26,886 nt of DNA, from IMG/VR virus record IMGVR_UViG_3300012942_000037, positions 77,245-104,130 of that record. One strand, written 5' to 3'. Below, in pieces: positions 8,148 through 25,395 of this stretch. Source of the stretch: a virus (lineage: Duplodnaviria; Heunggongvirae; Uroviricota; Caudoviricetes). The position numbers and the translations under genes are program-made. The notes under the pieces were generated by a model. That model saw only the letters and a program-made list of their open reading frames with translations. It was not told the origin of the DNA and did not search any database. Position 1 is the stretch's first letter; every line of letters begins with the position of its first letter.

Positions 8148-8182
8148 CTAAATATGGGTAGTTAATTGCCTAGAGGTCTGTC

Positions 8183-8626
8183 GTGCGCGCTCGTGAATTA
8201 CTCTTCGAGGATAACCGAAGCAAGATTGAGAAGCTAGAAGAGCTGATTGCTCATCCTGGCACCGAAGAGACCGTTCGCAAGGTAGCACAAAACCGTCTCC
8301 AGCTATTACGGGCTAATATGCCCGTAGTGCCCCGTAGCCGTATCACAGTCGAGACAAACATCCTAGAGGAGCACTTGGATCAGCAATTCCTCACGGGTAT
8401 CACAATGGGGCAGATCTATGAGGGTCTTTGTAGCCTATCTCCAGCACCTAATAGGATTCACTTCCTCCGCCAGGGTCAGATCCAAATGATGGTTCCACCA
8501 CCTATGATGGGTAAGACACGGCAGGAGTATTACGAGGATATCTACAGGGTCTGCCCAGGATCCAAGAATGTCACCGCTCGCATGGTCGAAGGTCAGGGTT
8601 ACTTCTTTGTGATTAGCTACCTCTAA
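8183..8626 (+). CDS. late hypothetical protein with capsid-targeting-like N-terminus (MRARELLFE)
   Basis: CTAAATA at 8148-8154, SD GAGG, GTG start. Confidence 0.75.
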   Translation: MRARELLFEDNRSKIEKLEELIAHPGTEETVRKVAQNRLQLLRANMPVVPRSRITVETNILEEHLDQQFLTGITMGQIYEGLCSLSPAPNRIHFLRQGQIQMMVPPPMMGKTRQEYYEDIYRVCPGSKNVTARMVEGQGYFFVISYL

Positions 8627-8683
8627 TTGGTTGACAGTCTCCTCTACCTATGTTCGTATATAGGTGAAACAAAGGAGAAGTTG

Positions 8684-9328
8684 ATGACCAAGTTCGAGAA
8701 GAAGCTGCTAACCCTCCGCCAGCAGCTCATCGGTGCGCGTTATCATCATGCGCTCGCGGCTCTCGAATTTGCTATCCGTTACCACACAGGAACTCGCAAG
8801 GATGGTAAGACTCCTGAGTTCCAACACCAGGTAGAGATCGCGCTCTTTGCGCTCACTCTCCCCGATCTGATGTATAGGGAGGAGGTCATTGCTACTATCC
8901 TGCTTCACGATGTGCGTGAGGATTATGGCGTCTCGGATGGTGAGATCTCGGATCTCTTTTTCGAAGACTTGGCCTTTGCCCAACGGGTTTGCTCAGCGGT
9001 TTGGAATATGACCAAAGAATTCCGTGGTGTTAAGCGGGATGAGAAAGCCCTCTTTGATGCGATGAGTCAGGATCCTATTGCCTCTATTGCTAAGGGTTGT
9101 GATAGGATGCACAACCTCCAATCCATGGTCGGTGTGTTTAAGCTGGAGAAGCAGAAGGAGTATATCCAGGAGGTCTTCGATCTCTTCCTTCCGATGCTCA
9201 AGAAGGCTCGGCGGCTCTTCCCCCATCAGGTCCATGCTTACGAGCTTCTGAAGTTTGTGCTTCACGCGCAAATAGATTTGATTAAGTTTACATGGCCGAC
9301 TGAATCTGATCTGACCAACGATCAGTAG
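8684..9328 (+). CDS. RelA/SpoT-type HD hydrolase (small alarmone hydrolase/Mesh1-like)
   Basis: HTGTRKDGKTPEFQH, LLHDVRED, MTK and GCDRMHNL motifs are intact; SD AAGGAG before ATG 8684; promoter TTGACA at 8631. Confidence 0.85.
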   Translation: MTKFEKKLLTLRQQLIGARYHHALAALEFAIRYHTGTRKDGKTPEFQHQVEIALFALTLPDLMYREEVIATILLHDVREDYGVSDGEISDLFFEDLAFAQRVCSAVWNMTKEFRGVKRDEKALFDAMSQDPIASIAKGCDRMHNLQSMVGVFKLEKQKEYIQEVFDLFLPMLKKARRLFPHQVHAYELLKFVLHAQIDLIKFTWPTESDLTNDQ

Positions 9329-10295
9329 GCCAATCTATTTCTTCACCATCAAGAACAAGAATCACTTTATAACCGGCTGAAACGGCTGCGTTGAGCTTGA
9401 TCATGTTCTGCTGAAGTAACTCAATATTTTTACCAGTGTGCCACCAGGTCCACTGGCTTTTCACTTCGTACAGGACGTTACCGATTTGGAAGTCGGCCAA
9501 GTATGTTCTCGGTCCATTGAAGTTGTAACTAATGGCTGGTCCTCGTTTGATTGAAGCAATTGAACCAAGTTCAAATTCCTTCTTCTCAATGAAGGCGAGT
9601 TCAAATGATCCTTGGTAGTAAAGATGAGTGTCCTGATATCTCTTACATTCAATACCTTTACCCCAGCCTTTTAGGAAGGCGCGATCAAAACTATTCAAGC
9701 CATTCTCATCTATATCATTGATGCGGGTTTGAACTGCTTTTGCTCTTGATTCGGTATAAGGTATCACACCGAGTTCAACGCACCGTTTGATGTAAGAATC
9801 TTTTGCTCTTCGACCGTAAACTTGAGCGTTGGTTTGGATTTGGTCATCTGATAGTTGAGCCAGATGATCTGACATCCGAAGTTTTGCTCTTTCAAAACTG
9901 TTTAAGCCGTCATCACCTATGATAGATCTAGTTTCTCTCCATTTATCCAAGGCTGTCTCTTCGATGGATTTGCCGTTGATGATAGTTTCTTTCTTTGTTT
10001 TCACCATAGAAACGGCGGCCCTATGATAGCGATCAGGATCCTTAATCTTTGTATCCTTTCTAGTCTGTATGGCTTTCAGACGAGCTACTTCATAGACGTC
10101 TTGGCCTTGATCGTTTACAGATATTCTCTTGGCAGCCACTGATTTTTGGGCTCTGTCTCTATAGAATTCGGCTGATCTCTCTTGACTCTTTTTCATGGCC
10201 GGGCATTTACTGTGGTGACTTGAGCAACAGGCCTTACCATTACCTGAAACTCTGACGGCTTGCTGGCCACAGCCATAATCGCATATTCTTTTCAT
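9288..10295 (-). mobile_element. free-standing putative homing endonuclease, PD-(D/E)XK C-terminal domain
   Basis: N-terminal CDYGCG...CCSSHHSKCP Zn-like motif, internal GLNSF(E/D)RA repeats, C-terminal YQGSFE...YLADF...LYEVKS; opposite strand with its own late promoter (10300-10306). Confidence 0.75.
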
Positions 10296-10305
10296 AACCT
10301 ATTTA

Positions 10306-10383
10306 GCCTACGAGAATATCAAACACATACTGTCGAGCCAAATTGAACTCATTCAGGCCGTTCACCAAGCAACTGAATCCTAG
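10306..10383 (+). pseudogene. orphan duplicate of the HD hydrolase 3' end (AYENIKHILSSQIELIQAVHQATES*)
   Basis: Aligns with the HD C-terminus AYELLKFVLHAQIDLI (9 of 16 identical); no start codon or SD; in-frame stop at 10381-10383. Confidence 0.75.
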
Positions 10384-10399
10384 AATATAGACAGCAAGG

Positions 10400-10428
10400 G
10401 GAGCGTTCTCATACAAAGAGGACGCTCC
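10400..10428 (+). terminator. hairpin after the orphan HD tail (processing site or weak terminator)
   Basis: GGAGCGTTCTC-ATACAAA-GAGGACGCTCC; no U-tract. Confidence 0.4.
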
Positions 10429-10470
10429 AGTCATATCAGCTGAGCCAGATCGAACAAACTGGTAAGGCAT

Positions 10471-11169
10471 ATGACTGATACAACTGATAATCTCATCGAT
10501 CTGGGTGATTACAAAGGGCGGCGTGAATCGCTGAGCTTCTACTCATTCTTGAAGAGTGATTCAACCGCATCTCATTACAAAGCACTCAAAGATGACATCG
10601 AAGGTAAGCTCTCTAGGGGTGAACCAGTTTATGTGACCTTCCATGATGATCGCCGGTCGAATTCAGTAGGTAGGATCAAATCCTGTAACATTCGGTGGGA
10701 AGAGAGTCAGCGGCGCAGATCCTATTGGGATCCGAACAGCACCTGTGATACCTACATCTATGCTGGTATTGATAACATTGAGATAGTCTGGGATGGCCGA
10801 AAGAATAAGGTCAAACCTCGGGCCAATGAACTCACATATCTTCCTGATTGGTCAGGTGGTACACAGTGGTATTGGGAGCAGACAGTCAGGGAGAAGGAAG
10901 ATCCAATCATCGCATATGACCATCTGGGTCAGGAACTCGAGGTAGGCCAGCATGTTTGTTTCGTTCATCGTCAGTATGGTAGAACTTCGATGAAGTTCGG
11001 TACGGTGACTCGATTTACCCGCAAGGGTAGCGTCTTCGTCAAGACAATGAAACTCAGAGATGGTCAGAGAGGCGGCGAGGAACTTAAAGCCCTTTCAATG
11101 GATGATGTCGTAATCGTCAATGATGCTCTGATGAAGCGCTTGACCCTGGCTAAGCTGAAGGCAGTTTGA
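10471..11169 (+). CDS. hypothetical protein, SH3/KOW-like beta barrels; paralog of the next gene
   Basis: Shares RGEP.YV, SVGR, WDGR.NKV and D.LG..L..G with 11172. Confidence 0.8.
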   Translation: MTDTTDNLIDLGDYKGRRESLSFYSFLKSDSTASHYKALKDDIEGKLSRGEPVYVTFHDDRRSNSVGRIKSCNIRWEESQRRRSYWDPNSTCDTYIYAGIDNIEIVWDGRKNKVKPRANELTYLPDWSGGTQWYWEQTVREKEDPIIAYDHLGQELEVGQHVCFVHRQYGRTSMKFGTVTRFTRKGSVFVKTMKLRDGQRGGEELKALSMDDVVIVNDALMKRLTLAKLKAV

Positions 11170-11171
11170 TC

Positions 11172-11891
11172 ATGACCAAGTCAATTCCTCTATCGCGATA
11201 CCAATGGCGCGCTCAATCACCCGTTCCTAATAATTGGGCCGATGAGATGGCTGAAATGGTAAAGGCCTATATCAGGGGTGAACCAATCTTCGTTGGTTTT
11301 GATCCAGTAGCTGAACCAAAGCGAATTGGTTCGGTTGGTCGCCTATACATCAGTTCTGAATGTATTCAGAACCTCCTTTATGGATCCTACAACCATTTTC
11401 GTTACGCACAGAGGGAAACCCGCCCTCTGTTGAAACCTGAAGAATCTCTGATCAAGCCAGAAACTTTCAAAATGATCATCTTGGATGGTCATGTGAAATG
11501 GGATGGTAGATCCAACAAGGTCAACATCGGTTCAGCCTATTCAGTGAATTGGTTGAAAGGTTATGATGCTTCCAAGGGGACAATTTGGAAGTGGGCTAAG
11601 CCCGATGATCCACCTGCTATCACACCTAAGGATAAGCTGGGTCGAGACATCACCAAGGGTGATTTCATCTCCTACATCCTATACCACTTTGACAACAAGT
11701 ACAATGCGGCTGGTATCTACTACGGCAAGGTGACTAAGATTGAGAATGATGGCACGGTCTGGGCCAAGAATATCAAGCTCTCCGAGAAGGACAAAGTGGC
11801 TGAGAAGCGTATTAAGGATAACAGCCTGATCGTCATCATGACTAAGGATCTCATGGATAAACTCATGATGGCACGGCTCTCTATCTTGTAA
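11172..11891 (+). CDS. hypothetical protein, tandem paralog of 10471
   Basis: Same motif series as 10471; ATG 11172 chosen over TTG 11166. Confidence 0.8.
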   Translation: MTKSIPLSRYQWRAQSPVPNNWADEMAEMVKAYIRGEPIFVGFDPVAEPKRIGSVGRLYISSECIQNLLYGSYNHFRYAQRETRPLLKPEESLIKPETFKMIILDGHVKWDGRSNKVNIGSAYSVNWLKGYDASKGTIWKWAKPDDPPAITPKDKLGRDITKGDFISYILYHFDNKYNAAGIYYGKVTKIENDGTVWAKNIKLSEKDKVAEKRIKDNSLIVIMTKDLMDKLMMARLSIL

Positions 11892-11944
11892 TTGATTGAC
11901 ATGGTCTCTTCTGGGCGTATTGTCAGTGGGGTAAAGGAGATGCT

Positions 11945-12238
11945 ATGAAGAAGCTTCTACTCTTCCTGCCCTTGGTTGCTCTTGTGGCATGTGATCCCTT
12001 GGTCACCGATGGTGATCTTAAGGCCCGCCTTGAAGCACTTGGCTTCTCGAAAGTCATGATTCAACCGGCCCGACTCAATTGTGGTCGGTTTGGCCAGGGG
12101 AAGAGGTTCCTTGGTTCTAATAAGCAAGGTCAGGTGGTTCTCGGTCAGATTTGCTATCTCAAGGCTGCTCGTGACGTTCAGTATAAGGTGGATATTCTGA
12201 GCACAATGACCCCTATTCCTGACAGGGCTTCACAGTGA
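11945..12238 (+). CDS. putative lipoprotein
   Basis: MKKLLLFLPLVALVA-C lipobox; SD AAGGAG; promoter TTGACA at 11896. Confidence 0.75.
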   Translation: MKKLLLFLPLVALVACDPLVTDGDLKARLEALGFSKVMIQPARLNCGRFGQGKRFLGSNKQGQVVLGQICYLKAARDVQYKVDILSTMTPIPDRASQ

Positions 12239-12450
12239 CTGAAGGAACACAGAAACCCTCGAAAGGCAAGGTGAACTGGTATTGGCTGATTGTGGTTTTG
12301 GTGGTGGGTATGCGTCTTGGTATGGACGTTCAGCATCATATGGATCTTAAGGTTATGAGCATCATGGGTGACACGATCGACAAGTGTGTTGACTTCATGG
12401 AACAACTGAACCAAGGTGCCCAGGATAGTGACACCTATCATTTGATTTAA
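12235..12450 (+). CDS. small membrane protein
   Basis: One hydrophobic segment WYWLIVVLVVGM; coupled to the lipoprotein gene. Confidence 0.65.
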   Translation: MTEGTQKPSKGKVNWYWLIVVLVVGMRLGMDVQHHMDLKVMSIMGDTIDKCVDFMEQLNQGAQDSDTYHLI

Positions 12451-12488
12451 TTGACGCAGCCGTCCACACCTTATAAGTAATTGATATT

Positions 12489-12576
12489 GGACGGGTGGGT
12501 GAGAGGCTGAAACCACCGGTTTGCTAAACCGACGAACCGAAAGGTTCCGCGGGTTCGAATCCCGCCTCGTCCGCCA
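12489..12576 (+). tRNA. tRNA-Ser(GCT), CCA encoded
   Basis: GGACGGG/CTCGTCC acceptor, loop TT-GCT-AA, long V arm, GGTTCGAATCC, G73; own promoter TTGACG at 12451. Confidence 0.95.
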
Positions 12577-12577
12577 A

Positions 12578-12616
12578 ATGGCCCGTAGCCTAGATCGAAA
12601 GTCAGGCACGGGCCAT
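12578..12616 (+). other. stable stem-loop between tRNA-Ser and the next start codon
   Basis: ATGGCCCGT/ACGGGCCAT plus GCCT/AGGC. Confidence 0.6.
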
Positions 12617-12620
12617 AGTC

Positions 12621-13085
12621 ATGAATGAACTACATTTCCCCTTGAGGGTCCTTGAAAACGAGGATGGAACTGTAACCCTTCTGGTTTCTCATGAAGATAA
12701 CCACTCCTGGGGTTCAGCAAAAGCGGCGCAGACCGAGCAGCGTGATAAGACACGTAGGTTCTGTAATTGGATTCGCAAGCAATATCCTCACATACCAACT
12801 GAATTTCGGTATCTAGGTAAGAAACAGGTTCGCGATGTTCGGAGCCGTTGGTGTACTCGTTTCCGAGTCGTCAATACGGATAAGCATTTCGTAGCCTACA
12901 ACATGGCTAAGAATGAACTCCTGATGATCAAGCTGGCTTGGACCTTTAAGACTCAGAAAGCAGAGTTATCCGGGGATAGGCATGAACCTGGCATTTACGT
13001 GATTGGGCTTGATGAGGTGAAACCAACACCAGCTCTAGTTGGCCGTATTGCGAATAAGACCAAAGCCAAGTTGGTGAAGCTATGA
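12621..13085 (+). CDS. hypothetical protein; paralog of the next gene
   Basis: Shares TLL.SH, TR.F..W.R....I.TEFR, HFVAY and KLA with 13082. Confidence 0.8.
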   Translation: MNELHFPLRVLENEDGTVTLLVSHEDNHSWGSAKAAQTEQRDKTRRFCNWIRKQYPHIPTEFRYLGKKQVRDVRSRWCTRFRVVNTDKHFVAYNMAKNELLMIKLAWTFKTQKAELSGDRHEPGIYVIGLDEVKPTPALVGRIANKTKAKLVKL

Positions 13086-13534
13086 GTGGTTTGAATGAGC
13101 TCAGCTACAAACTGAAGTATGCGCGTAATCCAAACGGCAATTATACCTTGCTGATTAGCCATCCTAATGGTACGGCAAACAAACGGTATGATAACCAGTA
13201 TCGTGAGAGGCAACTTCAGAATCGAGCCAGAACTCGTGAATTTGTGAAGTGGTTTCGAAGAACTTTCAAACATATCCAGACCGAGTTCAGAGGTCTATCT
13301 TCTAATCATTGGTATGACTCAAAGCGGCATTTCGTAGCCTACGAGGTGCCTCCTAAGGATTTCATGTTCCTCAAATTAGCCAAAGAAACAGAGATGAGTG
13401 AACTGGCTATTGGTTATAAGAGCAATGGCCAACTTGGTCAGGATTATATCTATGAGAACCACACTCGACCCTCAGAAGAGCTGCTAGCTCGCCTTGGTAA
13501 GAATTCAGCCACTATCCCCTGTAGGGCCTTTTGA
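13082..13534 (+). CDS. hypothetical protein, tandem paralog of 12621
   Basis: Same motif series; ATGA overlap with 12621. Confidence 0.8.
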   Translation: MSGLNELSYKLKYARNPNGNYTLLISHPNGTANKRYDNQYRERQLQNRARTREFVKWFRRTFKHIQTEFRGLSSNHWYDSKRHFVAYEVPPKDFMFLKLAKETEMSELAIGYKSNGQLGQDYIYENHTRPSEELLARLGKNSATIPCRAF

Positions 13535-13627
13535 CGACCCGTAACAATCTTGCGTTAAAGGCGCTTGATAGGCCATCATAGAAGTGCTTTGTTTTGTGAT
13601 GCTGCTAACCTTGATATGGAGGACCTA

Positions 13628-13990
13628 ATGGCAGAACCTCAACACCCCGCAATCGTCGACGCAATAGAAAGCAGGCTCCAAGTCTGCTTTCGCTATCATA
13701 GCGAGAATTCCTCGACTGACGAGCCAACTGAGCGAATAGTCGAACCTTGGATCTACGGTTCCAAGAACGGCAAGGAATCGCTCTATGGTTACCAGGTCAG
13801 CGGCGGATCGCCGGGGATGAAGAGGTTTGACATGCGACGAGTCAAACACGTTAATCTGAATGGCGAGCATATTGAAAACCATCCACCGAAGGTTGCTGAT
13901 GTGACCAAATGGGATAACATATGGGCTTCTCATGGAACTGATATGGTTCTACAAACCGTCAAGAGCCCAACGGATGCTATAGCGCTTTAG
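13628..13990 (+). CDS. stand-alone WYL-domain protein
   Basis: AIESRLQVCFRY...ERIVEPWIYG...LYGYQ...KRFDMRRV; SD GGAGG before ATG 13628; no HTH. Confidence 0.8.
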   Translation: MAEPQHPAIVDAIESRLQVCFRYHSENSSTDEPTERIVEPWIYGSKNGKESLYGYQVSGGSPGMKRFDMRRVKHVNLNGEHIENHPPKVADVTKWDNIWASHGTDMVLQTVKSPTDAIAL

Positions 13991-14047
13991 AGCTCCAAGA
14001 GAGGCAAATGGAGTTAGATGGGGTTGGGCCTGTCTGGCTCCATTTGT

Positions 14048-14082: not shown

Positions 14083-14649
14083 ATGACTATTGGAATTGGC
14101 ATACACCTGCCCCACAGTTGGGCTAAGAAGCGCTCCATGAAATGGTTCTCGAGTTGGACTCACGGTAAGCTCACCGAGAATAAGGCATGGGAATGGCAGA
14201 CCGATTATTTCGGTTGGAACACCCTATTCAGCCTTGACCTGGATCTGATACCCACGGGGTATGATCACGCAGGTATTGGTTTCAGCCTTACCATTCTGGG
14301 CTTCATGGTTGAAGCTAAGATCTACGATTCTCGACATTGGGATTATGAGAATGGCACCTGGGAGAAGTATGACGAGGAGTCTATGAAGGCTCGCATGTCA
14401 CGCGACGACCAACGTCGTGCTGATGAACTCGATCATGCCTACCGATTGGTTAAGGCTGATGGTCACCAGCAGGTGCTGAAGAGTGCCGAAGAATTCCTCG
14501 AATCTCCTCAGGGACAGGCTCTGATCGACCGTAAGGTCAAGGCAAAGCTCGAGGAACAGCGACAGAGCAAAGACGCCAAACGTGCTCGTGGAGAAGCCTA
14601 CAGAAGGGCTAATCTTGCTTCTCAGGCTGGAGATTCTGATGCTGGTTGA
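14083..14649 (+). CDS. hypothetical protein (Trp-rich N-half, charged C-half)
   Basis: ORF directly after the promoter; coupled to the ARH gene. Confidence 0.75.
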   Translation: MTIGIGIHLPHSWAKKRSMKWFSSWTHGKLTENKAWEWQTDYFGWNTLFSLDLDLIPTGYDHAGIGFSLTILGFMVEAKIYDSRHWDYENGTWEKYDEESMKARMSRDDQRRADELDHAYRLVKADGHQQVLKSAEEFLESPQGQALIDRKVKAKLEEQRQSKDAKRARGEAYRRANLASQAGDSDAG

Positions 14650-15532
14650 GATGGCTGTGGCTGATGCCTATGCTATCGCCTGGGAATTCACTGACCAGCA
14701 AAAGGCCGAGAACGATCTAACTGGCTTCCATCAGCATCCTACCTATGCTGAACTCAAAGCGGGTCAATATACTGACGATACCCAGCGATCGATCGCAAAT
14801 GCCCAAGTTCTGCTGGGTCCACCTGAGAATCGTTTCAATCCACTGATCTATGCCCAGGCTTACTTGGAGCAGGTTCGTATGGACCCCAGGGAGGGATATT
14901 CACGCGGTTATCAGGCCTTCCTCAAGAGCGTCAACCACCCTTTGGATTTTCTGGTTCAGATCGAGCGCACCAAGACTAGTAATGGTTCTCTGATGGGTGT
15001 CGCACCCATGGGCTTTCTTCCAGACCTTCGTGAGGTCAAGCTGGCTGCGATGATCCAGGCCATAACTACCCATCATCCAGATACCGTGATCCATGCCCAG
15101 CTGGTGGCAATGGCTGTTCACTATTTCACACATTGCCAGGGTGATCAAGATGGCTTGATCCAGTGGTTACTTACCAATGCGGCGTTCGCGAATACTAGTC
15201 AGGCTGATAGCTGGCTAAGGGACGTTGAGGGTTTCAAGCATGGCGGGCGCACTGGTATAAAGGCCAGCAGCATCAGCGCCTGGATGGCATGGGCAGTTAG
15301 TGAGTTCACGAGCTTGAAGGAGATCATCTACTGGTCTGTCGAGGCCGGTGGTGACACTGACAGCGCGGCGGCAGTCGCGGTAGCCGTAGCAAGCTGCGCA
15401 CCCGATGACGAGATTGAAAAGGATATTCCGGAGAATCTGAAGGTAGCTCTCGATGCTGCTAACCCTGGGTTTGGTGTGGAATACCTCAACACCATCGAGC
15501 ATAAGCTGCGTCTGATGTATAAGATAGGTTGA
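14639..15532 (+). CDS. ADP-ribosylglycohydrolase (ARH/DraG family)
   Basis: AVADA...WEF, YTDDTQ, SNGSLMGVAP, THH and GGDTDSAAAVA motifs; SD GGAG before ATG 14639. Confidence 0.92.
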   Translation: MLVEMAVADAYAIAWEFTDQQKAENDLTGFHQHPTYAELKAGQYTDDTQRSIANAQVLLGPPENRFNPLIYAQAYLEQVRMDPREGYSRGYQAFLKSVNHPLDFLVQIERTKTSNGSLMGVAPMGFLPDLREVKLAAMIQAITTHHPDTVIHAQLVAMAVHYFTHCQGDQDGLIQWLLTNAAFANTSQADSWLRDVEGFKHGGRTGIKASSISAWMAWAVSEFTSLKEIIYWSVEAGGDTDSAAAVAVAVASCAPDDEIEKDIPENLKVALDAANPGFGVEYLNTIEHKLRLMYKIG

Positions 15533-15563: not shown

Positions 15564-16049
15564 ATGGCAAAGATGATCATCCTCATTGGACCGCCTGCTA
15601 GCGGTAAATCCACCTGGCGTGAGAAGTTCCTCGCTAGTCAGACCGGTGAATGGGTGATCGCGTCGACTGATGATCTTGTGGAGGCATGGGCGGCTGAACG
15701 CGGTCTGACCTACAATGAAGCCCACCCCAAGGCGCCTTGGGGTGATTTCAACAAGACGTTCAAGTATGCGGTTCGTGATGCCGTGGCGGCTGGTAAAAAC
15801 ATCATCATCGACCGAACCTCGATGAGTGTGAAGAACCGCAAGGACTACTTCAAGAACCTCCCCGAAGGGTATGAGGTTGAGGCAGTGGTCTTTGTTGTTC
15901 CTCAGCCTGAACTAGAACGTCGTATGAAAGAGCGCTTCGCAGTAACTGGTAAGAGTGTGCCGCATGTTGCGCTGTTGGCTATGAATAAGCGCTATCAAGC
16001 CCCTACCAAGGAGGAGGGCTTCCACCAGATCACTTACGTGAGGCCGTAA
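15564..16049 (+). CDS. P-loop kinase, polynucleotide-kinase/AAA_33-like
   Basis: IILIGPPASGKSTW, STDD, IIIDRTS..VKNR; promoter TTGACG-N17-TAGATT (15529-15557) ends 6 nt before ATG. Confidence 0.85.
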   Translation: MAKMIILIGPPASGKSTWREKFLASQTGEWVIASTDDLVEAWAAERGLTYNEAHPKAPWGDFNKTFKYAVRDAVAAGKNIIIDRTSMSVKNRKDYFKNLPEGYEVEAVVFVVPQPELERRMKERFAVTGKSVPHVALLAMNKRYQAPTKEEGFHQITYVRP

Positions 16050-16692
16050 GTCGAGTGCCATCTGGCCCGTAGAGCGGGTCACCCTGATTCGCTGAAAAGC
16101 GAGCTGAGTCGTCCCCATAGCTTCCTGAGAGCAATGGTGGACGACCTTCAGCATCTAGTGTATTGCCAAATTTGGCGGCCTGTCTTTGAATCTCACCAGG
16201 TTGTACATCAACAGTCGTATTGACATTTGGAACAATCACGCCCCATTCGTTAACCTGATTCTTAGGCTCAATTTGGAAGACCGTATCAGTGCCGGCTTTG
16301 TGGGTCGAGACCTGCCAACCTAACTCCTTAGCAATCATATCGGAGAACCTCCTATACAATTTGGAGCGGCTAGCTTCCTTGGCGGAGAATCGGATTGGTG
16401 CCAATGGGTTGTGTTTGAAGAAATCCCTTATAATGTCAGCCACTGTAGCGAATACCTTGAATTGGTTTCCCGCTCCACTGATATCAAGCCCACTCTCCTT
16501 ACTAGCAAACATGATGTCAATGACATCCAGACCATCTCCAAAAGAGATAGTTACGTCAATACGGTCACCATCCGGGTAGAAAGAAGCTATCCAGCCATGC
16601 GGTCTCTTAATGACCCAATCCCAAGCAAGGGGTTGGTTCAATAGTTCATCTAAGCGGTCAGATCTTGGTGATAGGAGTTCCCAGAGTTTCAT
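16030..16692 (-). CDS. late hypothetical protein with capsid-targeting-like N-terminus (MKLWELL)
   Basis: Co-oriented 3 nt after the 16696 gene; SGAGNQFKVFATV...FSA.E.SR.KLY module plus a C-terminal VNTTVDV...QAAKFG module. Confidence 0.8.
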   Translation of the reverse strand: MKLWELLSPRSDRLDELLNQPLAWDWVIKRPHGWIASFYPDGDRIDVTISFGDGLDVIDIMFASKESGLDISGAGNQFKVFATVADIIRDFFKHNPLAPIRFSAKEASRSKLYRRFSDMIAKELGWQVSTHKAGTDTVFQIEPKNQVNEWGVIVPNVNTTVDVQPGEIQRQAAKFGNTLDAEGRPPLLSGSYGDDSARFSANQGDPLYGPDGTRLTASRK

Positions 16693-16695: not shown

Positions 16696-17265
16696 TCAGG
16701 CCGCCTTTGTTTGCTCGGAATCGTTGGCCTCTTGGTCATAGTTCCGATTAGGGTCATAGAGTTCGCCCTCACTATCATAAAGCGGATGTATCCTCTTTGA
16801 CGGGTCCCTCGTATAATCGGTGGTTGATACCCATTTGACCTTTATCGCACTTGCTGGAATATCACCTGAATCGGTCCATACTGCTCCAATAGGCGTATTG
16901 GATGCGCTATCTTTGTGGAATTCAAATCCATCAAGTTTCGAGGTATCTATCTCAAATACGGTGAATGGTATGAGGAAGTCAGGCCGTATCATGCTAATGG
17001 TCTTATTGTGAAGTTCGGCCAAGACCGACTTCATATAGTTTTCAATAACCTTAGCATCAAAGCGTTCGAAGAAGTAGATTCGGTCTTTGTAACTCTCAAT
17101 GCCGAGATCCTGGGCTATTTCAATATCATAATCGCTGAAATGCTTTGGCCAATCCTTTGTTGATCGTTTCAACCCATTGGTCATGATATTAGTCTGATTA
17201 ACGGCGTCAGACGCATGGTAGAGAAACCTCGATTCTGTTTCGGATATGATCTCACTCCAACGCAT
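16696..17265 (-). CDS. ADP-ribosyltransferase-fold protein (Tpt1/KptA-like), late, MRWSEIISE N-terminus
   Basis: LYHAS...NI...GLK, RIYFF, VFEIDTSKL, F.KD, AVWT...IPASAI; CTAAATA at 17271-17277 overlaps the track ATG, so the second ATG (17265) is used. Confidence 0.65.
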   Translation of the reverse strand: MRWSEIISETESRFLYHASDAVNQTNIMTNGLKRSTKDWPKHFSDYDIEIAQDLGIESYKDRIYFFERFDAKVIENYMKSVLAELHNKTISMIRPDFLIPFTVFEIDTSKLDGFEFHKDSASNTPIGAVWTDSGDIPASAIKVKWVSTTDYTRDPSKRIHPLYDSEGELYDPNRNYDQEANDSEQTKAA

Positions 17266-17278
17266 ATCCATATTTAGT

Positions 17279-17307
17279 TTGACATCTAAGCCAATCCCCC
17301 GTATATT
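17279..17307 (+). promoter_or_regulatory. sigma70 promoter, back-to-back with a minus-strand late promoter
   Basis: TTGACA-N17-TATATT. Confidence 0.7.
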
Positions 17308-17365
17308 GGATCTATGACCAGACAGAGACCCCTACCAAGGCGCTAAATACTTCGCGCCCCTGCCC

Positions 17366-17860
17366 GTGGATCGGGACTTGGGTCTTCTAAGCCTGAAGTT
17401 GGTGAGTTCGATTCTCCCCAGGGGCTCCAATTTTGGAGTTATCATGGACGCGGTCATAAACACATTCCAGCCAGATCAACGAGATTCATTTGGCCAGTAT
17501 GTGATCCTACCTGGCCACATCCATGTCTTCCCCTTCACTATTCCATTCTTGGGTAAGGTGTGCTTGGAGCTCACTCATATCCTACCTAATAGCCAAGACT
17601 TCTCGATTGATGCCTGGGTATCTGATAGACCCTTGGATGGTTTGGTCTTACGCAGGGATATAGGCCATTTTAGGCTGATCCGTCGTCAAACCGTCTTTGA
17701 AATCCACGATGAATGTCTCAAAGCTGGTGACCATGATACTCGCCTTTTTCTTAGGAGTGGTCAGACCTTTTACGTGAATGTGAAGGATCTCCAGAACCGC
17801 AAGAATGCCTATGAGCTCTTCATTGAAGAGGTTGCTCATAATCCCCCTCCAGTTACCTAA
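17366..17860 (+). CDS. hypothetical protein (start uncertain)
   Basis: Frame is open from 17318; GTG 17366 has no SD; see the frameshift finding. Confidence 0.6.
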   Translation: MDRDLGLLSLKLVSSILPRGSNFGVIMDAVINTFQPDQRDSFGQYVILPGHIHVFPFTIPFLGKVCLELTHILPNSQDFSIDAWVSDRPLDGLVLRRDIGHFRLIRRQTVFEIHDECLKAGDHDTRLFLRSGQTFYVNVKDLQNRKNAYELFIEEVAHNPPPVT

Positions 17861-19477: not shown

Positions 19478-19483
19478 ATAGCG

Positions 19484-19882
19484 ATGGATGACTCCTACAC
19501 GGTTGACGACCGTAGCCTTTTGAGGGCGATTGAGTTTGTCGATCGCCAATCGAAGACCACCAGTGATGTCGCCTCGACATCACTGGTGGAGCATATCGTC
19601 GATCGTCCGCAATTCCAGATTCTTAAGGATAACCAACACCTAAGAGAGCTTCTTAGGGCCTTTCTGCTAGCTAACATCCGCGTAGCTCACATCAGGAATC
19701 AGCTCTCGACTGAGCAGTCTAAGGGATGGTTTGAACGCTTAGCCAACAAGAGCAAAAGAGAGCGGCTCCAACTGGAATTAAACCAATTAGAGCCGCTCCA
19801 AAATGAGTCTTTCAATGCCTATGAGATGCTTCGCAAGCTCACAGATATTGAAAACTATCTGCTACGTCGCATTCTAGCTTAG
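19484..19882 (+). CDS. hypothetical helical protein
   Basis: 132-aa ORF 6 nt after the upstream stop. Confidence 0.7.
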   Translation: MDDSYTVDDRSLLRAIEFVDRQSKTTSDVASTSLVEHIVDRPQFQILKDNQHLRELLRAFLLANIRVAHIRNQLSTEQSKGWFERLANKSKRERLQLELNQLEPLQNESFNAYEMLRKLTDIENYLLRRILA

Positions 19883-20673
19883 TGGCGTTCCGCACCACAG
19901 TTGACGCAAACATCATAGGGTGGTTCGACTAGGTTGCCGTCATCATCGACCCCCTCAACCCAATCATGGTCACAGTCGTTATCACTATCAACGTAGCCCG
20001 TGCCATCATTGTGGCCTTCCTCAACTGATTCGTTCATACCAACTTCAGCCTTGAGCGCATCTAGTTGGCTGTCATACCTGGCGCCCCACTTGTCGACCCA
20101 AGCTGCCAATTTGGCAAAGAAACCCTTGAGCTTATCCCCAAGACCTTCATTGATTGACTCCTCGGTCTGAGCCACTTTGTCAGTAGCCTTAAGTGATGCG
20201 GCCTTCTGAACTGGTGCGCTCTTATGCTTCTCGATCAGAGTCTCGAGAACGTCCTGAAGTTCAGGAGTGAGATGATTCTGAAGCTCCTCAAGAACCTTGG
20301 CGTATTTGACTGTCTCGGTGGGCTTGGGGTCTTTGCTCATGTGGAAGATGAAAGATACGGTATCCACGACACGGGTAGAAGCGGCGTCTTCGGCATGGAA
20401 GAGATCAGCGATTAGCTCTCTGGATTCCTGCTTGGTATCTTCCTTGAGCTGCTTCACTCGCTTATCAAGGAGTTCAATACGCTTGAGATTGCGGCCTAGC
20501 TTGGTATAGCGGCCTGACTCATAGGATTTGAGGAATGCGGTGATCTTGTTGATCTCACCGCCAGTCTGCTCAGCCGAATAAGTGATGTCTGGGTGTTGAA
20601 CCTTACCCACATAGTCTGGTGCTGCCGCCTCGAATAGCTTGAGGTAGCCGCGCATGTTTGTTGCGTCAGTCAT
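19879..20673 (-). CDS. putative head internal protein
   Basis: ATAAATA at 20697-20703, SD AGGAGGAG; MRGYLKLFE near the N-terminus; ESINE/G and NESVEE/G protease-like sites; C-terminal CDH...CVNCG. Confidence 0.75.
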   Translation of the reverse strand: MTDATNMRGYLKLFEAAAPDYVGKVQHPDITYSAEQTGGEINKITAFLKSYESGRYTKLGRNLKRIELLDKRVKQLKEDTKQESRELIADLFHAEDAASTRVVDTVSFIFHMSKDPKPTETVKYAKVLEELQNHLTPELQDVLETLIEKHKSAPVQKAASLKATDKVAQTEESINEGLGDKLKGFFAKLAAWVDKWGARYDSQLDALKAEVGMNESVEEGHNDGTGYVDSDNDCDHDWVEGVDDDGNLVEPPYDVCVNCGAERH

Positions 20674-20738
20674 AGGATTCTCCTCCTGGGTTCACCTATT
20701 TATTGATTTCTCGACTGGTGATCATCCACAACACCGGT

Positions 20739-21356
20739 ATGTATATTTTCCTTTATCAGGCTGCTCGTCATGCCAAGCCCGTTGGTTATTACAACAATCG
20801 TCGCCGCTATAGCCAGTCTACGATTCGATGTGATTTTGATCTAGAGCTACTCAAGAAGGGTATCAAAGGCAGATACCAGATCTTAGGTCATGGTAATCAC
20901 CCGTTCCAGAAAGCATTGAAGCAGATGGATTTAGAAGAGGAGTTCTATGGCCACATCATAGCGATTGAAGATTCAAGAAATGCGGTCTGGTTCAAGCTCA
21001 ACTATGATAACATTGGCAAGCATCAAACCAAATACATCGGTGGATGGCGAGATTTGAATGCGGATCACATAGCACCACAAGTTCATCAGTATCAGCTCTT
21101 GGACCAGGTAGCTAAAGGCCTCTATAATCAGATCAGTTTGGTCAAAATGCAGAGAAACCAGGTAGCTCACTTTGCCAATCGTAATACCCAGAATCCTCAT
21201 CCACTTGTTGATCCAGCGATCCAAGCAGGTCGAGATTTCATTAAGACTCTGGATGAAGCTGAGAAGAATCTATCAAGTGAGCGTGATCGCCAGATGGTCA
21301 AACTTGCTGAGCTACAGGATCAGGTCAGAACCTATATGAACGAGCATAAGGGTTAA
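20739..21356 (+). CDS. hypothetical protein
   Basis: ATG 20739 in the track frame; AVWFKLNY motif followed by a coiled-coil. Confidence 0.7.
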   Translation: MYIFLYQAARHAKPVGYYNNRRRYSQSTIRCDFDLELLKKGIKGRYQILGHGNHPFQKALKQMDLEEEFYGHIIAIEDSRNAVWFKLNYDNIGKHQTKYIGGWRDLNADHIAPQVHQYQLLDQVAKGLYNQISLVKMQRNQVAHFANRNTQNPHPLVDPAIQAGRDFIKTLDEAEKNLSSERDRQMVKLAELQDQVRTYMNEHKG

Positions 21357-21423
21357 GACTGGTTGACAGTTCACCTGTTTCTGCTAAACCGATCATACGG
21401 AAACGCAGAAACAGGAGATCGAA

Positions 21424-22335
21424 TTGACCCTTCCGACGGTTAAGGAATTCAAAGATCATGCCGTCCAGGTAATCCAAGTCATGAAGGCTTGGGCCAAGGA
21501 AGAGTTTCATCTCCACAATCTGCCCCTCAAAGTTCGATTCATCGAGCAACAGCGCAACTATTATGGCCAGGCTGGCGTGCTTCGAGATCGGTCGGGACGA
21601 TTTGTCCAGTTTGAACTCAAGCTGGCTATGTATGATTTTATTCACTATCCTCAGGTTGCGGTTTGTGAATACAAGAGCTTCAACAAGAGCAAGGTCATTG
21701 GTGGCTTTGAAAGCACTGACTGGCGGCTCGGTCTTGATACACTGGTTGCTCATGAGATGGCTCACGTGGTTCAGTTCGCACTAAAGATGTCAGCGTTCGA
21801 CCACAGAGCCGTAGGAAGTGATCATCCTTTGGTCACCGGTTGGAATGGGATCACGCCAGTCTTTGGTCGTATGGGTCCTTTTGAATCCAACCATGGAAGC
21901 TTCTTCCAACATGTCTACAAGCGCTTTCGGGAAGAATTCATCAACCACCAGGTTCCAAGGGAAGCCTATACCGCTCCTCACCACTGTTTCGATATTCCTG
22001 ATGATTTTGAGGAACGATTAGCTGGGATGCCAAAGAGCGGCCTTGAGGGGATCCGTTTCATGAGCAATGGCAGAGAACTTGAGGTTGCTGGCCGTAACCC
22101 CAATACCCGTAAGCGCCTCTTCAACTATCAAGTCAAGGAAGTAGCCACGGGGCGTTACCTTGCTATTAAGATGGCAATGATCGCAGCAAGGAGCCCTGAA
22201 GCCAAAGCGATTATCGATAAAAGTCCAGAGCTCTATGCGGAGTTCCAAACTCATTGTATGGCAATCCACACCAAGCAAATGGCGAATGCTAAGAGTGGCT
22301 ATACTAAACGACGCCGAGCGGCCAGTAGGAGGTAA
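21424..22335 (+). CDS. SprT-like zinc metalloprotease
   Basis: TLVAHEMAHVVQF (HExxH) with downstream NHGSFFQ; promoter TTGACA-N14-GCTAAA (21363-21388); SD AGGAG with TTG start. Confidence 0.75.
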   Translation: MTLPTVKEFKDHAVQVIQVMKAWAKEEFHLHNLPLKVRFIEQQRNYYGQAGVLRDRSGRFVQFELKLAMYDFIHYPQVAVCEYKSFNKSKVIGGFESTDWRLGLDTLVAHEMAHVVQFALKMSAFDHRAVGSDHPLVTGWNGITPVFGRMGPFESNHGSFFQHVYKRFREEFINHQVPREAYTAPHHCFDIPDDFEERLAGMPKSGLEGIRFMSNGRELEVAGRNPNTRKRLFNYQVKEVATGRYLAIKMAMIAARSPEAKAIIDKSPELYAEFQTHCMAIHTKQMANAKSGYTKRRRAASRR

Positions 22336-22338
22336 TCC

Positions 22339-22728
22339 GTGCTTCTGATCCTCATCGCACTCTTGGCACAAGCCCAACCAGTTTTCACCGAGGATTTCCC
22401 CTCCGGATCACAGGTCGATCTGAACCAAGGATTCTACGTCTGCGAAACCCCTAACCCCAGGGATACTGTTGATCAGCTGGTGGAGATCCTTGATGGTAAT
22501 GTGAGGCGTGATCGCGCTGATTCACTTGGTTGCCCTTTTGTATTCCAGCCAGAGCATCCTCATCGTGTAACAGTGATCGACCATACGGCTGATATCTGTC
22601 TTGATGTCAGGTCTAGTTCCTACAATGCCTATTGCGGTCGAGAGGCTCATCAGCTGACTATCCAGGATGGCTCCAAAAGAGAGACGGTTATCTGGATTTC
22701 GCTTGATGTAGACTATGATGAAAATTGA
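22339..22728 (+). CDS. putative exported protein
   Basis: MLLILIALLAQA signal-like N-terminus; four Cys; SD AGGAGG. Confidence 0.65.
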   Translation: MLLILIALLAQAQPVFTEDFPSGSQVDLNQGFYVCETPNPRDTVDQLVEILDGNVRRDRADSLGCPFVFQPEHPHRVTVIDHTADICLDVRSSSYNAYCGREAHQLTIQDGSKRETVIWISLDVDYDEN

Positions 22729-22761
22729 CCTATAGGTCACTATATCGCATCATAGCGATAT
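22725..22761 (+). promoter_or_regulatory. promoter with perfect 14-bp palindrome and a second inverted repeat
   Basis: TGACCTATAGGTCA (22726-22739) over the -35; ATATCGC/GCGATAT (22742-22761) reaches the ATG. Confidence 0.6.
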
Positions 22762-23194
22762 GAAGATTGGATTCTCTTTCGGGCGGTGCGTCCGTGATAT
22801 CGTGAATGGGACAATTCCTTACGAGGATGTCTACCTCATTGTTTCAAGAACTCTCATTCATGACTCTTCACAGGTCGATGAAGTAATCCAGGAATACCTC
22901 TGGAGGCCCGAATACCTCCAGGGTCTAGATGAAACCCAATGCTATGAAGTAGCGCAGAAGCTCTACTTGGGAGGCAAGCTCTACCAACCTCGTAAGTATG
23001 GCTTCAATCCTCGAATGGTGGCCGAGAACGCGGTATGGATGGATCTCGCTCCTTGTATCCTAGGGCCAGATCTTGATGGTATGGAACCACATCATGCTGA
23101 GCAAGTGGTGAAGGCTTGGAAGAATTACCAACTGGCTCTGAAGATGACAGCTCTGAAACAGTTCCCCAAGGTTAACCTCAAGGATGACTTCTGA
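22760..23194 (+). CDS. conserved phage hypothetical protein
   Basis: MKIGFSFGRCVRDIV..G...EDVYLIVSRT N-terminus. Confidence 0.8.
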   Translation: MKIGFSFGRCVRDIVNGTIPYEDVYLIVSRTLIHDSSQVDEVIQEYLWRPEYLQGLDETQCYEVAQKLYLGGKLYQPRKYGFNPRMVAENAVWMDLAPCILGPDLDGMEPHHAEQVVKAWKNYQLALKMTALKQFPKVNLKDDF

Positions 23195-23394
23195 TGGAAG
23201 ATCCTCTGGCCTTTATGGCTCGTATGAAGGCAATTCTGAGCCAGGTTAAGAGCAAATACGTTCAGCCAGAGGGTAATTGTGTTTTGATGCGTAAGGCGGG
23301 TAACCTCACAGAGGCCGATCTAATACGTCTCATCAACTTCACTGAAGCGGCCCATGATTTCATCGAGAACAATAAGGGACAGCCTACCCTCTAA
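23194..23394 (+). CDS. small hypothetical protein
   Basis: Coupled TGATG start; 66 aa. Confidence 0.65.
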   Translation: MEDPLAFMARMKAILSQVKSKYVQPEGNCVLMRKAGNLTEADLIRLINFTEAAHDFIENNKGQPTL

Positions 23395-23402
23395 ATAGGG
23401 GA

Positions 23403-23834
23403 ATGGTAGATCACAGAAACCCACCCAAGCCACCTTTCTATAATAGTGCGAAGCCTGGTCAGTGCCGTTGGTGTGGCCAGGATATCCTAAAAGCCGATGG
23501 CTCAATCAACAAGAGGGCTAATTGGCATAAGGTCTGCGTGGCAGAATACAAACTCATTCATTGGCCCAATGAGACTCGTAAAGCTGTCTATAAGCGAGAT
23601 AAAGGGATTTGCTCTAAGTGTGGTCACAAGTGCGCTCACAAGTATAGTGACGTGTGGCACCTAGATCACATAAAGCCATTGATAGAGGCTCAGGGTGATC
23701 TCAATTATTGGAAGCTGCCTAATCTCCAAACCTTATGCCAAACATGTCATCATAAGAAGACGGGCGCGGAAGCAACCGCGAGGGCAGAAGCTAGAAGGGT
23801 AGCCAAACTTAATGAGCCTGACGGATCTTCTTAA
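23403..23834 (+). CDS. HNH endonuclease
   Basis: CSKCG...WHLDHIKPL...NLQTLCQTCHHKKT; CTAAATA at 23391-23397. Confidence 0.9.
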   Translation: MVDHRNPPKPPFYNSAKPGQCRWCGQDILKADGSINKRANWHKVCVAEYKLIHWPNETRKAVYKRDKGICSKCGHKCAHKYSDVWHLDHIKPLIEAQGDLNYWKLPNLQTLCQTCHHKKTGAEATARAEARRVAKLNEPDGSS

Positions 23835-23970
23835 CGTCCTTGGATACATCCTGAGCTAGATCGGTCTGAACTTCTTCCTTTTGGGTTGCTTCACTGTAAC
23901 CCATCATGGAGAGGAAGTCAGGGTCTAGATCATTCCACCAAGATTCAGGGATGATTTCACGTATTTTCAT
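23809..23970 (-). CDS. 53-aa late protein MKIREIIPESWWNDLDPDF... (absent from ORF track)
   Basis: CTAAATA (23978-23984) 7 nt before ATG; capsid-targeting-like N-terminus; TAA at 23809-23811. Confidence 0.7.
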   Translation of the reverse strand: MKIREIIPESWWNDLDPDFLSMMGYSEATQKEEVQTDLAQDVSKDVKKIRQAH

Positions 23971-23994
23971 AACTACCTATTTAGTAGGGTTAGA

Positions 23995-24207
23995 ATGGCA
24001 GAACTGACTATCCACAAACATGATGGTGAGACTGATACCACGGGGTTGGCTCGATTGATCCGAGATATCACGGGATGCCATATCAGAGAAGCCAAGAAGA
24101 TCATCGAGCATTGTAAGGCGGGTGGTCGGGCTACGATCCAAGTGCCCTTTGCTCAGCGGCTCACGGTAGCAACAAAGTTCCTGGAGAAGGGGTTTACGAC
24201 CTCTTAG
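23995..24207 (+). CDS. ribosomal protein bL12 C-terminal-domain-like protein
   Basis: LARLIRDITGCHIREAKKIIE resembles the bL12 CTD helix-turn VIKAVR..TGLGLKEAKDLVE. Confidence 0.5.
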   Translation: MAELTIHKHDGETDTTGLARLIRDITGCHIREAKKIIEHCKAGGRATIQVPFAQRLTVATKFLEKGFTTS

Positions 24208-24273
24208 TATAAGGTTTCACTTTTAATAGCCTGATGCGTTCCTACTAAATATGCTACCATATGGGAGGCTATT

Positions 24274-25395
24274 ATGCGCTGGTCTGAAATTGTGACAGAG
24301 AGATGGATAACTGAAGAGCAGGTCAGCAAAGAGGGATCCATGTGGGTGGGATACCACCGCACCAAACCAGACAATTTGGAGCAGATCCAAAACAAAGGCT
24401 TTGTGGTTTCTAACCCTGACGAACAAGCCTACGGGCCAGGTGCTTATGCCTGCTTGGATTGGAAATCAATAACCAATGGGCCAGTCAACCTCTGGGGCTC
24501 GATGGTGTTGAAGGTAAAAATGAATCTACATGGATGTTTGGTTCTAGATGTCGATCTTGCCAAGCAGATCTATGGTGAAAAATCATCGCTTGAAGATCAG
24601 TTCAAGATGTTTGGTCTTCCTTTGGGGGAAATACCTGAGCTGCGAGCCCAGGCCCAGGGAGATTATGATGACGAAGATGATGATGATGATGATCCATATG
24701 CTGGTACTTACTCAGCTATGACACGCCGCGCTGCCGTCCTATTCTACGACTCGAACAAGATTAAGGGACTGGTTTACAACTGCCCAAATGATGGTAACGC
24801 AGTTGTGATGTGGAATCCAAAAGACATGATTCCGTTCGCCTATGCTGAAGACGTGAAGCCTGGGGCGGATCTCTCTTCAGTTAGCTGGACTAAACTTACA
24901 TCTGTTCCAATCGGTAAGGGATCAAACAGCAAACTACCTAAGTTTTCCAAAGGTCGGGATGGCAATACCTTGGAAAAGATGGGTAACCGTAAGAAGACGC
25001 CTCTGAATTCTCACGAAATGTTACACTATCTCAAAAAGTTCAACATCGGTCTTCATGATCTCAAAAACATGGGCTTCACGGTTGATGATGATCTTGCTAA
25101 TAAGATATGGAAAACAAAAGAGATCGGTGGAGTCTTAAAGAATGATCTACTGGTTGCGGGTCTTGGTTCTCCGTCAAATTCGGATCTGATTAGCGCAATA
25201 GCTAACGACAATACTGGTAATCTTATTATGACACTTGCCCACAAGGGACCGATTAACCAACAGATGCTTGACGCGGCAGTGAAATCTAAGGTCAGAGGGG
25301 TGGCCTATACTAGCCTTCAAGGCTATGCCAAAAAGAACGGCTTGAAGTTTGAACTGGATCCGGCGCGAACCGCGACACCACCGGTATCGCGATAG
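24274..25395 (+). CDS. ADP-ribosyltransferase-fold protein (H-Y class, ART-PolyVal-like), late, MRWSEIVTE N-terminus
   Basis: GYHRT...GF...YGPGAY, WGS.VLKVKMNL, KGLVY...DG..VVMWNP; CTAAATA at 24245-24251; SD GGAGG. Confidence 0.65.
   Translation: MRWSEIVTERWITEEQVSKEGSMWVGYHRTKPDNLEQIQNKGFVVSNPDEQAYGPGAYACLDWKSITNGPVNLWGSMVLKVKMNLHGCLVLDVDLAKQIYGEKSSLEDQFKMFGLPLGEIPELRAQAQGDYDDEDDDDDDPYAGTYSAMTRRAAVLFYDSNKIKGLVYNCPNDGNAVVMWNPKDMIPFAYAEDVKPGADLSSVSWTKLTSVPIGKGSNSKLPKFSKGRDGNTLEKMGNRKKTPLNSHEMLHYLKKFNIGLHDLKNMGFTVDDDLANKIWKTKEIGGVLKNDLLVAGLGSPSNSDLISAIANDNTGNLIMTLAHKGPINQQMLDAAVKSKVRGVAYTSLQGYAKKNGLKFELDPARTATPPVSR

Follow-up and report, generated by a model that had tools for sequence, protein, structure and literature searches.

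A short N-terminal tag shared by unrelated genes of a jumbo phage is probably a local version of the T4 capsid targeting sequence

Why should genes that are scattered over a phage genome, and that resemble each other in no other part, begin with much the same short peptide? The question is raised by a 26,886-nucleotide stretch of viral DNA (Caudoviricetes; IMG/VR record IMGVR_UViG_3300012942_000037, positions 77,245 to 104,130), here called the window, which takes up the final 26.9 kb of a contig of 104,130 bp. An earlier note on the window had pointed to six late proteins with a shared N-terminal tag, four of them matching M-[RK]-x-x-E-[IL]-[ILV]-x-E and two being looser variants. All six N-termini were found where it had placed them, and the translations agree with its division into four strict and two looser matches. 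The tag, a short amphipathic peptide at the N-terminus, is probably the form that the capsid targeting sequence (CTS) of phage T4 takes here. The tagged genes, named below by the positions of their starts, and the late-promoter-like TAAATA elements upstream of them are as follows (aa, amino acids; class B is defined further on).

8148..8154, plus strand: CTAAATA element upstream of the 8183 gene
8183..8626, plus strand: 147-aa protein with the tag (M)RARELLFE, from a GTG start (reads VRARELLFE); no Pfam or PHROG match
16030..16692, minus strand: 220-aa protein with a longer tag variant, MKLWELLSPRSDRLDE; DUF6934 domain (PF22028, E 1.8e-7); follows the 17265 gene
16696..17265, minus strand: 189-aa protein with the tag MRWSEIISE; predicted ADP-ribosyltransferase-fold cargo
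17271..17277, minus strand: CTAAATA element exactly 5 nt upstream of the ATG at 17265, a gene that is apparently leaderless
19879..20673, minus strand: 264-aa protein starting MTDATN-MRGYLKLFE-A (class B), with the motif from residue 7, behind a strong ribosome-binding site
20697..20703, minus strand: ATAAATA element upstream of the 20673 gene
23809..23970, minus strand: 53-aa protein with the tag MKIREIIPE
23978..23984, minus strand: CTAAATA element 7 nt upstream of the ATG at 23970
24245..24251, plus strand: CTAAATA element upstream of the 24274 gene
24274..25395, plus strand: 373-aa protein with the tag MRWSEIVTE; N-terminal domain, poly-Asp linker and helical C-terminal domain

The strict motif, nine residues long, stands at the N-terminus of six of the 155 genes predicted on the 104-kb contig. 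The other 149 lack it, and among internal positions in the same contig it occurs at one of 28,047 sites. Two of the six copies lie outside the window, and were located by a six-frame scan of the whole contig.

G000:C1:19952: 61-aa protein with the tag MRWSEIVNE
G000:C1:27953: 121-aa protein with the tag MRWSEIVSE, behind an ordinary ribosome-binding site

The proteins headed by the six strict copies range from 53 to 373 aa, and in every copy residues 7-9 read V-x-E, I-x-E or L-x-E. The looser copies end in a similar way, in L-D-E at residues 14-16 (16692) and in L-F-E at residues 13-15 (20673).

The simplest explanation would be that the shared N-termini have no function, and reflect chance, common descent or the recent duplication of one gene start. 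True paralogues do exist among tagged genes, in an array (gp54-62) of Agrobacterium phage Atu_ph07 that is described below, and short motifs can recur. Against this, 0.006 strict N-termini are expected and six are observed (Poisson P ~4e-14, counting the five that lie at called starts), and the synonymous codons are scrambled: the four copies of MRWSEI use AGC, TCC, AGT and TCT for serine, and so draw on both serine codon families, and two codons each are in use for Arg (CGT, CGC), Glu (GAG, GAA) and Ile (ATC, ATT). The regions upstream of these four copies are unrelated to each other, and an all-against-all BLAST of the tagged proteins of the contig, without their first 12 residues, found no pairwise similarity, which bears out the description of the carriers in the earlier note as unrelated. 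A mobile DNA cassette, in which promoter and gene start would travel as a repeat, is ruled out by the differing upstream sequences and synonymous codons, and paralogy of the tagged genes by the BLAST comparison. The varied codons, the unrelated upstream DNA and the lack of pairwise similarity together imply that conservation acts on the peptide, and the tag is, to judge from these sequence comparisons, under selection at the protein level. Sequence divergence points the same way. In the family of the 17265 protein (eight homologues, 31-54% identity) M1, R2 and E5 are invariant, even though the linker that follows the tag varies in length, and between phages the tag is kept where orthologues have only 26-37% identity. 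As far as sequence statistics allow, an origin without function is already refuted, and we regard it as extremely improbable.

The tag is also kept within other families to which its carriers belong. Among the homologues of the 8183 protein, 32 of 33 start MRA[RSH]E[LIFY][LI][FY]E, two of these also from GTG, and two orthologues of the 24274 protein keep MRW[SF]EIV[TS]E. A degenerate coding pattern for MRW[SR]EI[IV]xE has nine hits in IMG/VR, and 9/9 lie at the starts of open reading frames (ORFs), these being 61-170 aa long and belonging to at least five protein families.

To which phages does this DNA belong? CheckV estimates the contig as about 22% complete, from which a genome size of about 470 kb follows. 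The window had no megablast match among GenBank phages, protein searches with two of the tagged cargoes gave none either, and Pfam and PHROGs left five of the six tagged proteins of the window without annotation. The relatives were reached solely through a virion protein that neighbours the tagged genes; the G000:C1:27953 gene lies directly 3' of a virion structural protein gene. They are Sinorhizobium phage Phosso (469 kb) and Atu_ph07 (490 kb) and, more distantly, the Rak2-like phages CBB, BF and GAP32 relatives, together with PA5oct. All of these are jumbo phages of the T4 superfamily, and Atu_ph07 encodes homologues of T4 gp20, gp21, gp23 and gp55 (PMC6102473, Table S3). A complete IMG/VR relative of 499,572 bp (G001) was also available. 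The tag is present in these relatives: syntenic orthologues in Phosso start MKAIEILSE and MRLSEIINE, and the small protein encoded downstream of the conserved virion protein starts MRLIDLLES in Atu_ph07 (gp043), MRFSQITED in CBB (gp299), VKIKDILVE in PA5oct (gp246) and MRYKDLCEG in Vibrio phage 2.275.O, although the orthologues of this small protein have low sequence identity across these phages.

If the tag is a targeting sequence, its carriers should be found in virions, and the earlier note had named their absence from virions as what would speak against packaging. Atu_ph07 provides a direct comparison, its virions having been analysed by electrospray ionization tandem mass spectrometry, with 131 of 714 proteins listed (PMC6102473, supplementary Table S5). 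In Atu_ph07 the tag takes the form M-[RK]-[WL]-x-[EDQ]-L-x-E, and is found on 17 annotated proteins: gp43, gp53, gp54-gp63, gp408, gp482, gp548, gp561 and gp672. All 17 are in the virion list, compared with the background of 131/714 (hypergeometric P 1.2e-13), and the enrichment is still marked when they are counted as 8 independent families (P 1.1e-6). Among the more distant relatives, mass spectrometry is the source of the annotation of CBB gp299 and PA5oct gp246 as virion proteins, and PA5oct gp333 is likewise a tagged virion protein. The Atu_ph07 paper makes no mention of any N-terminal motif (PMC6102473), and a literature search found no description of the tag for Atu_ph07-like or Rak2-like phages.

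A protease that might remove such a tag is also present in the lineage. Peptidase_S77, the gp21-type family, was found in all six complete or near-complete relatives (Phosso, Atu_ph07, G001, CBB, PA5oct and the Vibrio phage); it had no match in the 104-kb contig, which covers about 22% of the genome.

Two arrangements of tagged genes in the relatives are worth describing. In Atu_ph07 (NC_042013, 41844-50592, minus strand) ten tagged genes, gp54-gp63, stand in tandem, and all their products are in the virion proteome. They are mostly of about 30 kDa, and in several of them some 35 residues precede a Y-R-G motif. At the same locus this contig and Phosso have just one tagged gene, of 61-65 aa. 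This is reminiscent of the variable loci that encode internal proteins in T-even phages. Secondly, a tagged protein of 73-77 aa (MKINDIITE, MKLTELFNP) is encoded directly after the portal gene in PA5oct (NC_071039, 82921-83142) and in Atu_ph07 (NC_042013, 161865-162098), and the two proteins appear in the respective virion lists. T4 has its prohead core genes, 67 and 68, after gene 20.

What are the tagged proteins? The 17265 protein has no match in Pfam. Its AlphaFold2 model has a predicted local distance difference test (pLDDT) score of 82, with residues 1-10 below 50, the tag being a detached segment of low confidence. The top Foldseek hits are all of the ADP-ribosyltransferase (ART) fold, and include KptA/Tpt1, DarT1, the A subunits of pertussis and cholera toxins, and PARP2 (E 2e-4, probability 1.0, with template modelling (TM) scores of only 0.33-0.40). 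His17 and Tyr59 are invariant in the family, and the acidic residue of a W/Y-T-[DE] motif is present in six of the eight aligned sequences. The model thus predicts an ART fold for this cargo. About 1.2 kb from its gene is an ADP-ribosylglycohydrolase-like gene (window 14582-15532, plus strand; PHROG 6572, E 1.6e-17), whose product may serve as the eraser to the packaged writers.

For the 24274 protein, a structure search in the ESM Atlas returned PARP-family rows with TM scores of 0.45-0.54, and one feature-based row at 23% for ART-PolyVal. An AlphaFold2 model built from three sequences has a pLDDT of 49.5, which is too poor to test the fold, and the ESM Atlas matches make an ART/PARP-like fold of the N-terminal domain a possible lead. 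The poly-Asp/Glu linker of this protein (residues ~128-140) expands from ~13 to ~45 residues within a set of three orthologues whose identity over the full alignment is otherwise 72-79%.

The relatives of the 16692 protein begin M[KR]LWEL[LN], followed by (L/I)-[DN]-E at about residues 14-16, and two of them lie directly behind TAAATA-N5-ATG. By analogy with the T4 propeptides, of 10 to ~20 residues, this N-terminus fits a longer propeptide. There are hints of DUF6934 both here and in Atu_ph07 gp482; a direct comparison of the two proteins gave no significant similarity, and a relationship between them was rejected. The 78 homologues of the 20673 protein carry [MI]-R-x-[YFLM]-[LMI]-x-[LI]-[FMLT]-E after 0-8 leading residues. 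The 20673 protein itself has no hit to Pfam phiKZ_IP; a 70%-identical orthologue (P0041) scores 31.1 bits against a cut-off of 27, the matched part being a helical stretch, and from this sequence match the 20673 protein is possibly related to internal head proteins. Finally, the 61-aa protein at G000:C1:19952 is rich in glycine, with a tail rich in Lys and Arg, and may be compared with DNA-associated internal proteins, of which its composition is reminiscent.

Presence in virions does not by itself make the tag a cleaved signal for loading into the head. One alternative is a helix by which the protein docks onto another part of the virion, such as the tail, whiskers or capsid decoration, and a second is a permanent N-terminal helix binding a shared partner. 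Mass-spectrometry lists give presence in particles and not location, and the virion of Atu_ph07 is complex, with 131 proteins and whisker-like structures (PMC6102473). Several features argue for loading rather than docking. The tag ends in a Glu-terminated motif of the kind cut by gp21-type proteases, and small tagged proteins adjoin portal and protease genes (Atu_ph07 gp199 and gp206; PA5oct gp333). In the model of the 17265 protein the tag appears detached from the fold, and is followed by the linker of variable length. Furthermore, it is hard to see why enzymes with an ART fold, as predicted here, should be structural parts on the outside of the particle. We consider docking unlikely, and a local version of the T4 CTS clearly the better description.

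For cargo to be loaded during head assembly it must be made at that time, and the DNA upstream of the tagged genes bears on this. CTAAATA lies upstream of the 8183, 17265, 23970 and 24274 genes and ATAAATA upstream of the 20673 gene, in agreement with the earlier note, which had placed [C/A]TAAATA before five tagged genes and the sixth behind one of those; this sixth gene (16692) directly follows the 17265 gene. On the contig as a whole, TAAATA within 60 nt upstream goes with the motif: a script counted it for 4 of the 6 strict-motif genes and for 17 of the 149 others (Fisher P = 0.003), the former count becoming 5 of 6 when the 17265 start is used. The ATG at 17265 is the likely start of that gene, because it follows TAAATA by exactly five bases, whereas an in-frame upstream ATG, at 17271, falls within the CTAAATA element. 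More generally, 24 of 39 copies of TAAATA, and 16 of 20 copies of CTAAATA, have a start on the same strand within 60 nt downstream, and its placement before starts is far above that of composition-matched hexamers. Judged by its placement, TAAATA behaves like a promoter, and Atu_ph07 carries a gp55-like late sigma factor (PMC6102473, Table S3). The sequence suggests that the tagged genes are expressed late, alongside head assembly.

In six cases on the contig TAAATA is followed by exactly 4-5 bases and then ATG, with one more at N7. By analogy with T4 late promoters, this spacing would place the transcript start on the ATG, and would produce leaderless mRNAs. The six sites are as follows.

window 17263-17277, minus strand: TAAATA-N4/5-ATG
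window 23403, plus strand: TAAATA-N4/5-ATG
window 10295, minus strand: TAAATA-N4/5-ATG
G000:C1:9423: TAAATA-N4/5-ATG
G000:C1:37043: TAAATA-N4/5-ATG
G000:C1:54947: TAAATA-N4/5-ATG

The third of these stands four bases before a 335-aa ORF (window 9288-10295, minus strand) that is on the strand opposite to its neighbours'. There are 94 ORFs of this kind in G001, and few in Phosso and Atu_ph07.

The leaderless genes also raise a different explanation for the motif, namely that it is unrelated to virion loading and acts as a translation aid for leaderless mRNA, as an N-terminal degron for phage Clp machinery, or as a recognition leader for a modifying enzyme. It is true that some tagged genes are apparently leaderless (TAAATA-N5 or N7-ATG) and that, of the 94 leaderless late ORFs of G001, 49 have a hydrophobic-x-Glu that ends at residues 8-10, compared with 5.9% of internal Met sites; Atu_ph07, moreover, encodes several Clp-family proteins (PMC6102473). 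Each of the three roles meets a difficulty. Tags are also found on genes with ordinary ribosome-binding sites (8183, 24274 and G000:C1:27953), and their synonymous codons vary. Tagged proteins accumulate in particles, as all 17 do in Atu_ph07, which is the opposite of the effect of a degron. As for a modifying enzyme, G001, the genome richest in tags, has no radical S-adenosylmethionine (SAM) gene, and the radical-SAM genes of Atu_ph07 and Phosso are far from the tagged genes. A role as a leader for radical-SAM enzymes was found unlikely from the content and location of these genes in the three genomes. A function apart from virion loading is thus, in our view, distinctly improbable, less plausible even than a docking helix.

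The same G001 ORFs raise the possibility that the set of loaded proteins is very large, as well as that of the link to leaderless translation just discussed. Three N-terminal classes can be distinguished: class A is MRWxEIxxE, class B is of the (x0-8)-MRxWINLVE-G type and includes MRGYLKLFE, and class C is MLLxDLFE-A. Written in full, class B is (x0-8)-[MI]-R-x-hydrophobic-hydrophobic-x-[LI]-hydrophobic-E-[GSA], with examples DDIRRLMNLMEG and MRNWINLVEG. Class B is present on two further genes of the contig, outside the window (G000:C1:16338-16613 and 16882-17850). Atu_ph07 has two proteins of this class, gp594 and gp206, the latter encoded two genes downstream from that of the protease, and both are in its virion list. 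The 94 leaderless late ORFs of G001, 4-5 bases after TAAATA, comprise 8 of class A, 25 of class B and 7 of class C. From their sequences, the two looser cases in the window (16692 and 20673) belong to sibling N-terminal classes that look like propeptides. It is a tentative suggestion, and one on which we would not rely, that the three classes together mark a sequence-readable set of head-loaded, injected proteins, with dozens per genome (~40 of the 94 leaderless late genes in G001) and including ADP-ribosyltransferase-like families. If this is true, close to a tenth of jumbo-phage genes would encode proteins that are delivered into the next host.

How would the tag work? The tagged genes would be transcribed late from TAAATA-type promoters, some of them as leaderless mRNAs, so that the proteins would be present while the prohead is being built. 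The tag would bind the scaffolding core, and the protein would be enclosed in the prohead. A gp21-type prohead protease would then cut after the final Glu of (I/L/V)-x-E, freeing the mature cargo within the head. At the next infection the cargo would leave with the DNA and act at once, at least one ADP-ribosyltransferase-fold enzyme being a possible functional counterpart of T4 Alt. The earlier note had proposed that the cargoes are packaged into the head and injected. The presence of tagged proteins in the virion now stands for Atu_ph07, CBB and PA5oct; core binding, the location in the head interior, cleavage of the tag, injection and the role of each cargo are what we infer.

A number of observations weigh against this proposal. 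In the 469 kb of Phosso there are no more than two or three strict copies. The Glu of the tag is at position 9 in this phage and Phosso, at 8 in Atu_ph07 and at 10 in T4, and Val is accepted here at P3, outside the classical (L/I)-x-E rule. Of the 17 Atu_ph07 proteins, ten belong to the tandem array and are not independent. The Atu_ph07 virions were purified with polyethylene glycol, and the list includes ribonucleotide reductase, RecA-like, single-stranded DNA-binding and terminase proteins, so that it is not a clean head proteome; it contains no N-terminal peptides, and hence is silent on cleavage. In the distant PA5oct and CBB a loose pattern picked out four and three proteins, respectively, of which only two and one are in the virion lists, and it follows that only the lineage-specific consensus is suited as a predictor. 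Lastly, the contig holds neither a protease nor a capsid gene, and this phage is known here from its sequence alone.

Jumbo phages package many proteins of unknown role, and injected effectors, with functions in anti-defence or host takeover, have usually been learned by proteomics of cultured isolates. A tag that had no misses in the one close relative with data would make injected cargo readable from sequence, metagenomic contigs included. The candidates here are the two ART-like proteins, the 53-aa peptide and the DUF6934 protein. The tag would also be a native handle for loading foreign proteins into Sinorhizobium and Agrobacterium phages, as the T4 tag is for T4, and the loading mechanism of T4 would extend far beyond the T-even phages, greatly expanded in some lineages. 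The principle of the T4 CTS was known already; what is new is that the tag was cross-checked against a published virion proteome.

The closest known system is that of T4 itself, where the CTS of the internal proteins IPI, IPII and IPIII was reportedly treated by Mullaney and Black in 1996. It is removed from these proteins by the prohead protease gp21 (PMC3012670, PMC9026906), and the T4 targeting sequences are propeptides of 10-20 residues that are sufficient for packaging (PMC9026906, PMC5694885). In the T4 record, ipII and ipIII start MKTYQEFIAE, and Alt starts MELITELFDE behind TATAAATA. The likeness extends to several features. In both systems a short N-terminal peptide is carried by otherwise unrelated, fast-evolving proteins, and its pattern is M-basic-x-x-(x)-E-hydrophobic-hydrophobic-x-E, as in MKTYQEFIAE of T4 and MRWSEIVTE here. 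Both have TAAATA-type late promoters and a gp21-type protease in the lineage, and in both the cargoes are scattered over variable regions. The differences are that the tag has nine residues here, eight in Atu_ph07 and ten in T4, with Arg-Trp preferred here at positions 2-3, and that each genome has far more carriers (Atu_ph07 at least 17, G001 ~40 if the sibling classes are included). Furthermore, the carriers here are jumbo phages of 290-500 kb, distant from T4, in which the tag is known from sequence and virion lists.

T4 Alt, which according to the annotation of the T4 record is present in the capsid and enters the host with the DNA, is the nearest parallel for the cargoes. It shares with them an ART-type enzyme (the fold being predicted by the model for the 17265 protein and an ART/PARP lead for the 24274 protein), a late promoter and a hydrophobic-x-Glu at the end of the N-terminal segment. 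In sequence the cargoes here are not similar to Alt, and they have 189 and 373 aa compared with its 682 aa. They also look, from modelling, to be of the His-Tyr-acidic type, on the KptA/DarT/PARP side, whereas Alt is of the Arg-Ser-Glu type.

The second comparison is with phiKZ, 201phi2-1 and SPN3US, in which head and ejection propeptides are cut at (S/A/G)-x-E by a gp21-related protease (PMC5694885, PMC9026906). These too are jumbo phages that load many head proteins and trim them after Glu, and the 20673 orthologue reaches the phiKZ_IP threshold. However, their propeptides are mostly longer than 100 residues, with a small residue at P3 and no shared N-terminal consensus, whereas the tag described here is a fixed N-terminal consensus of 8-10 residues with a hydrophobic residue at P3.

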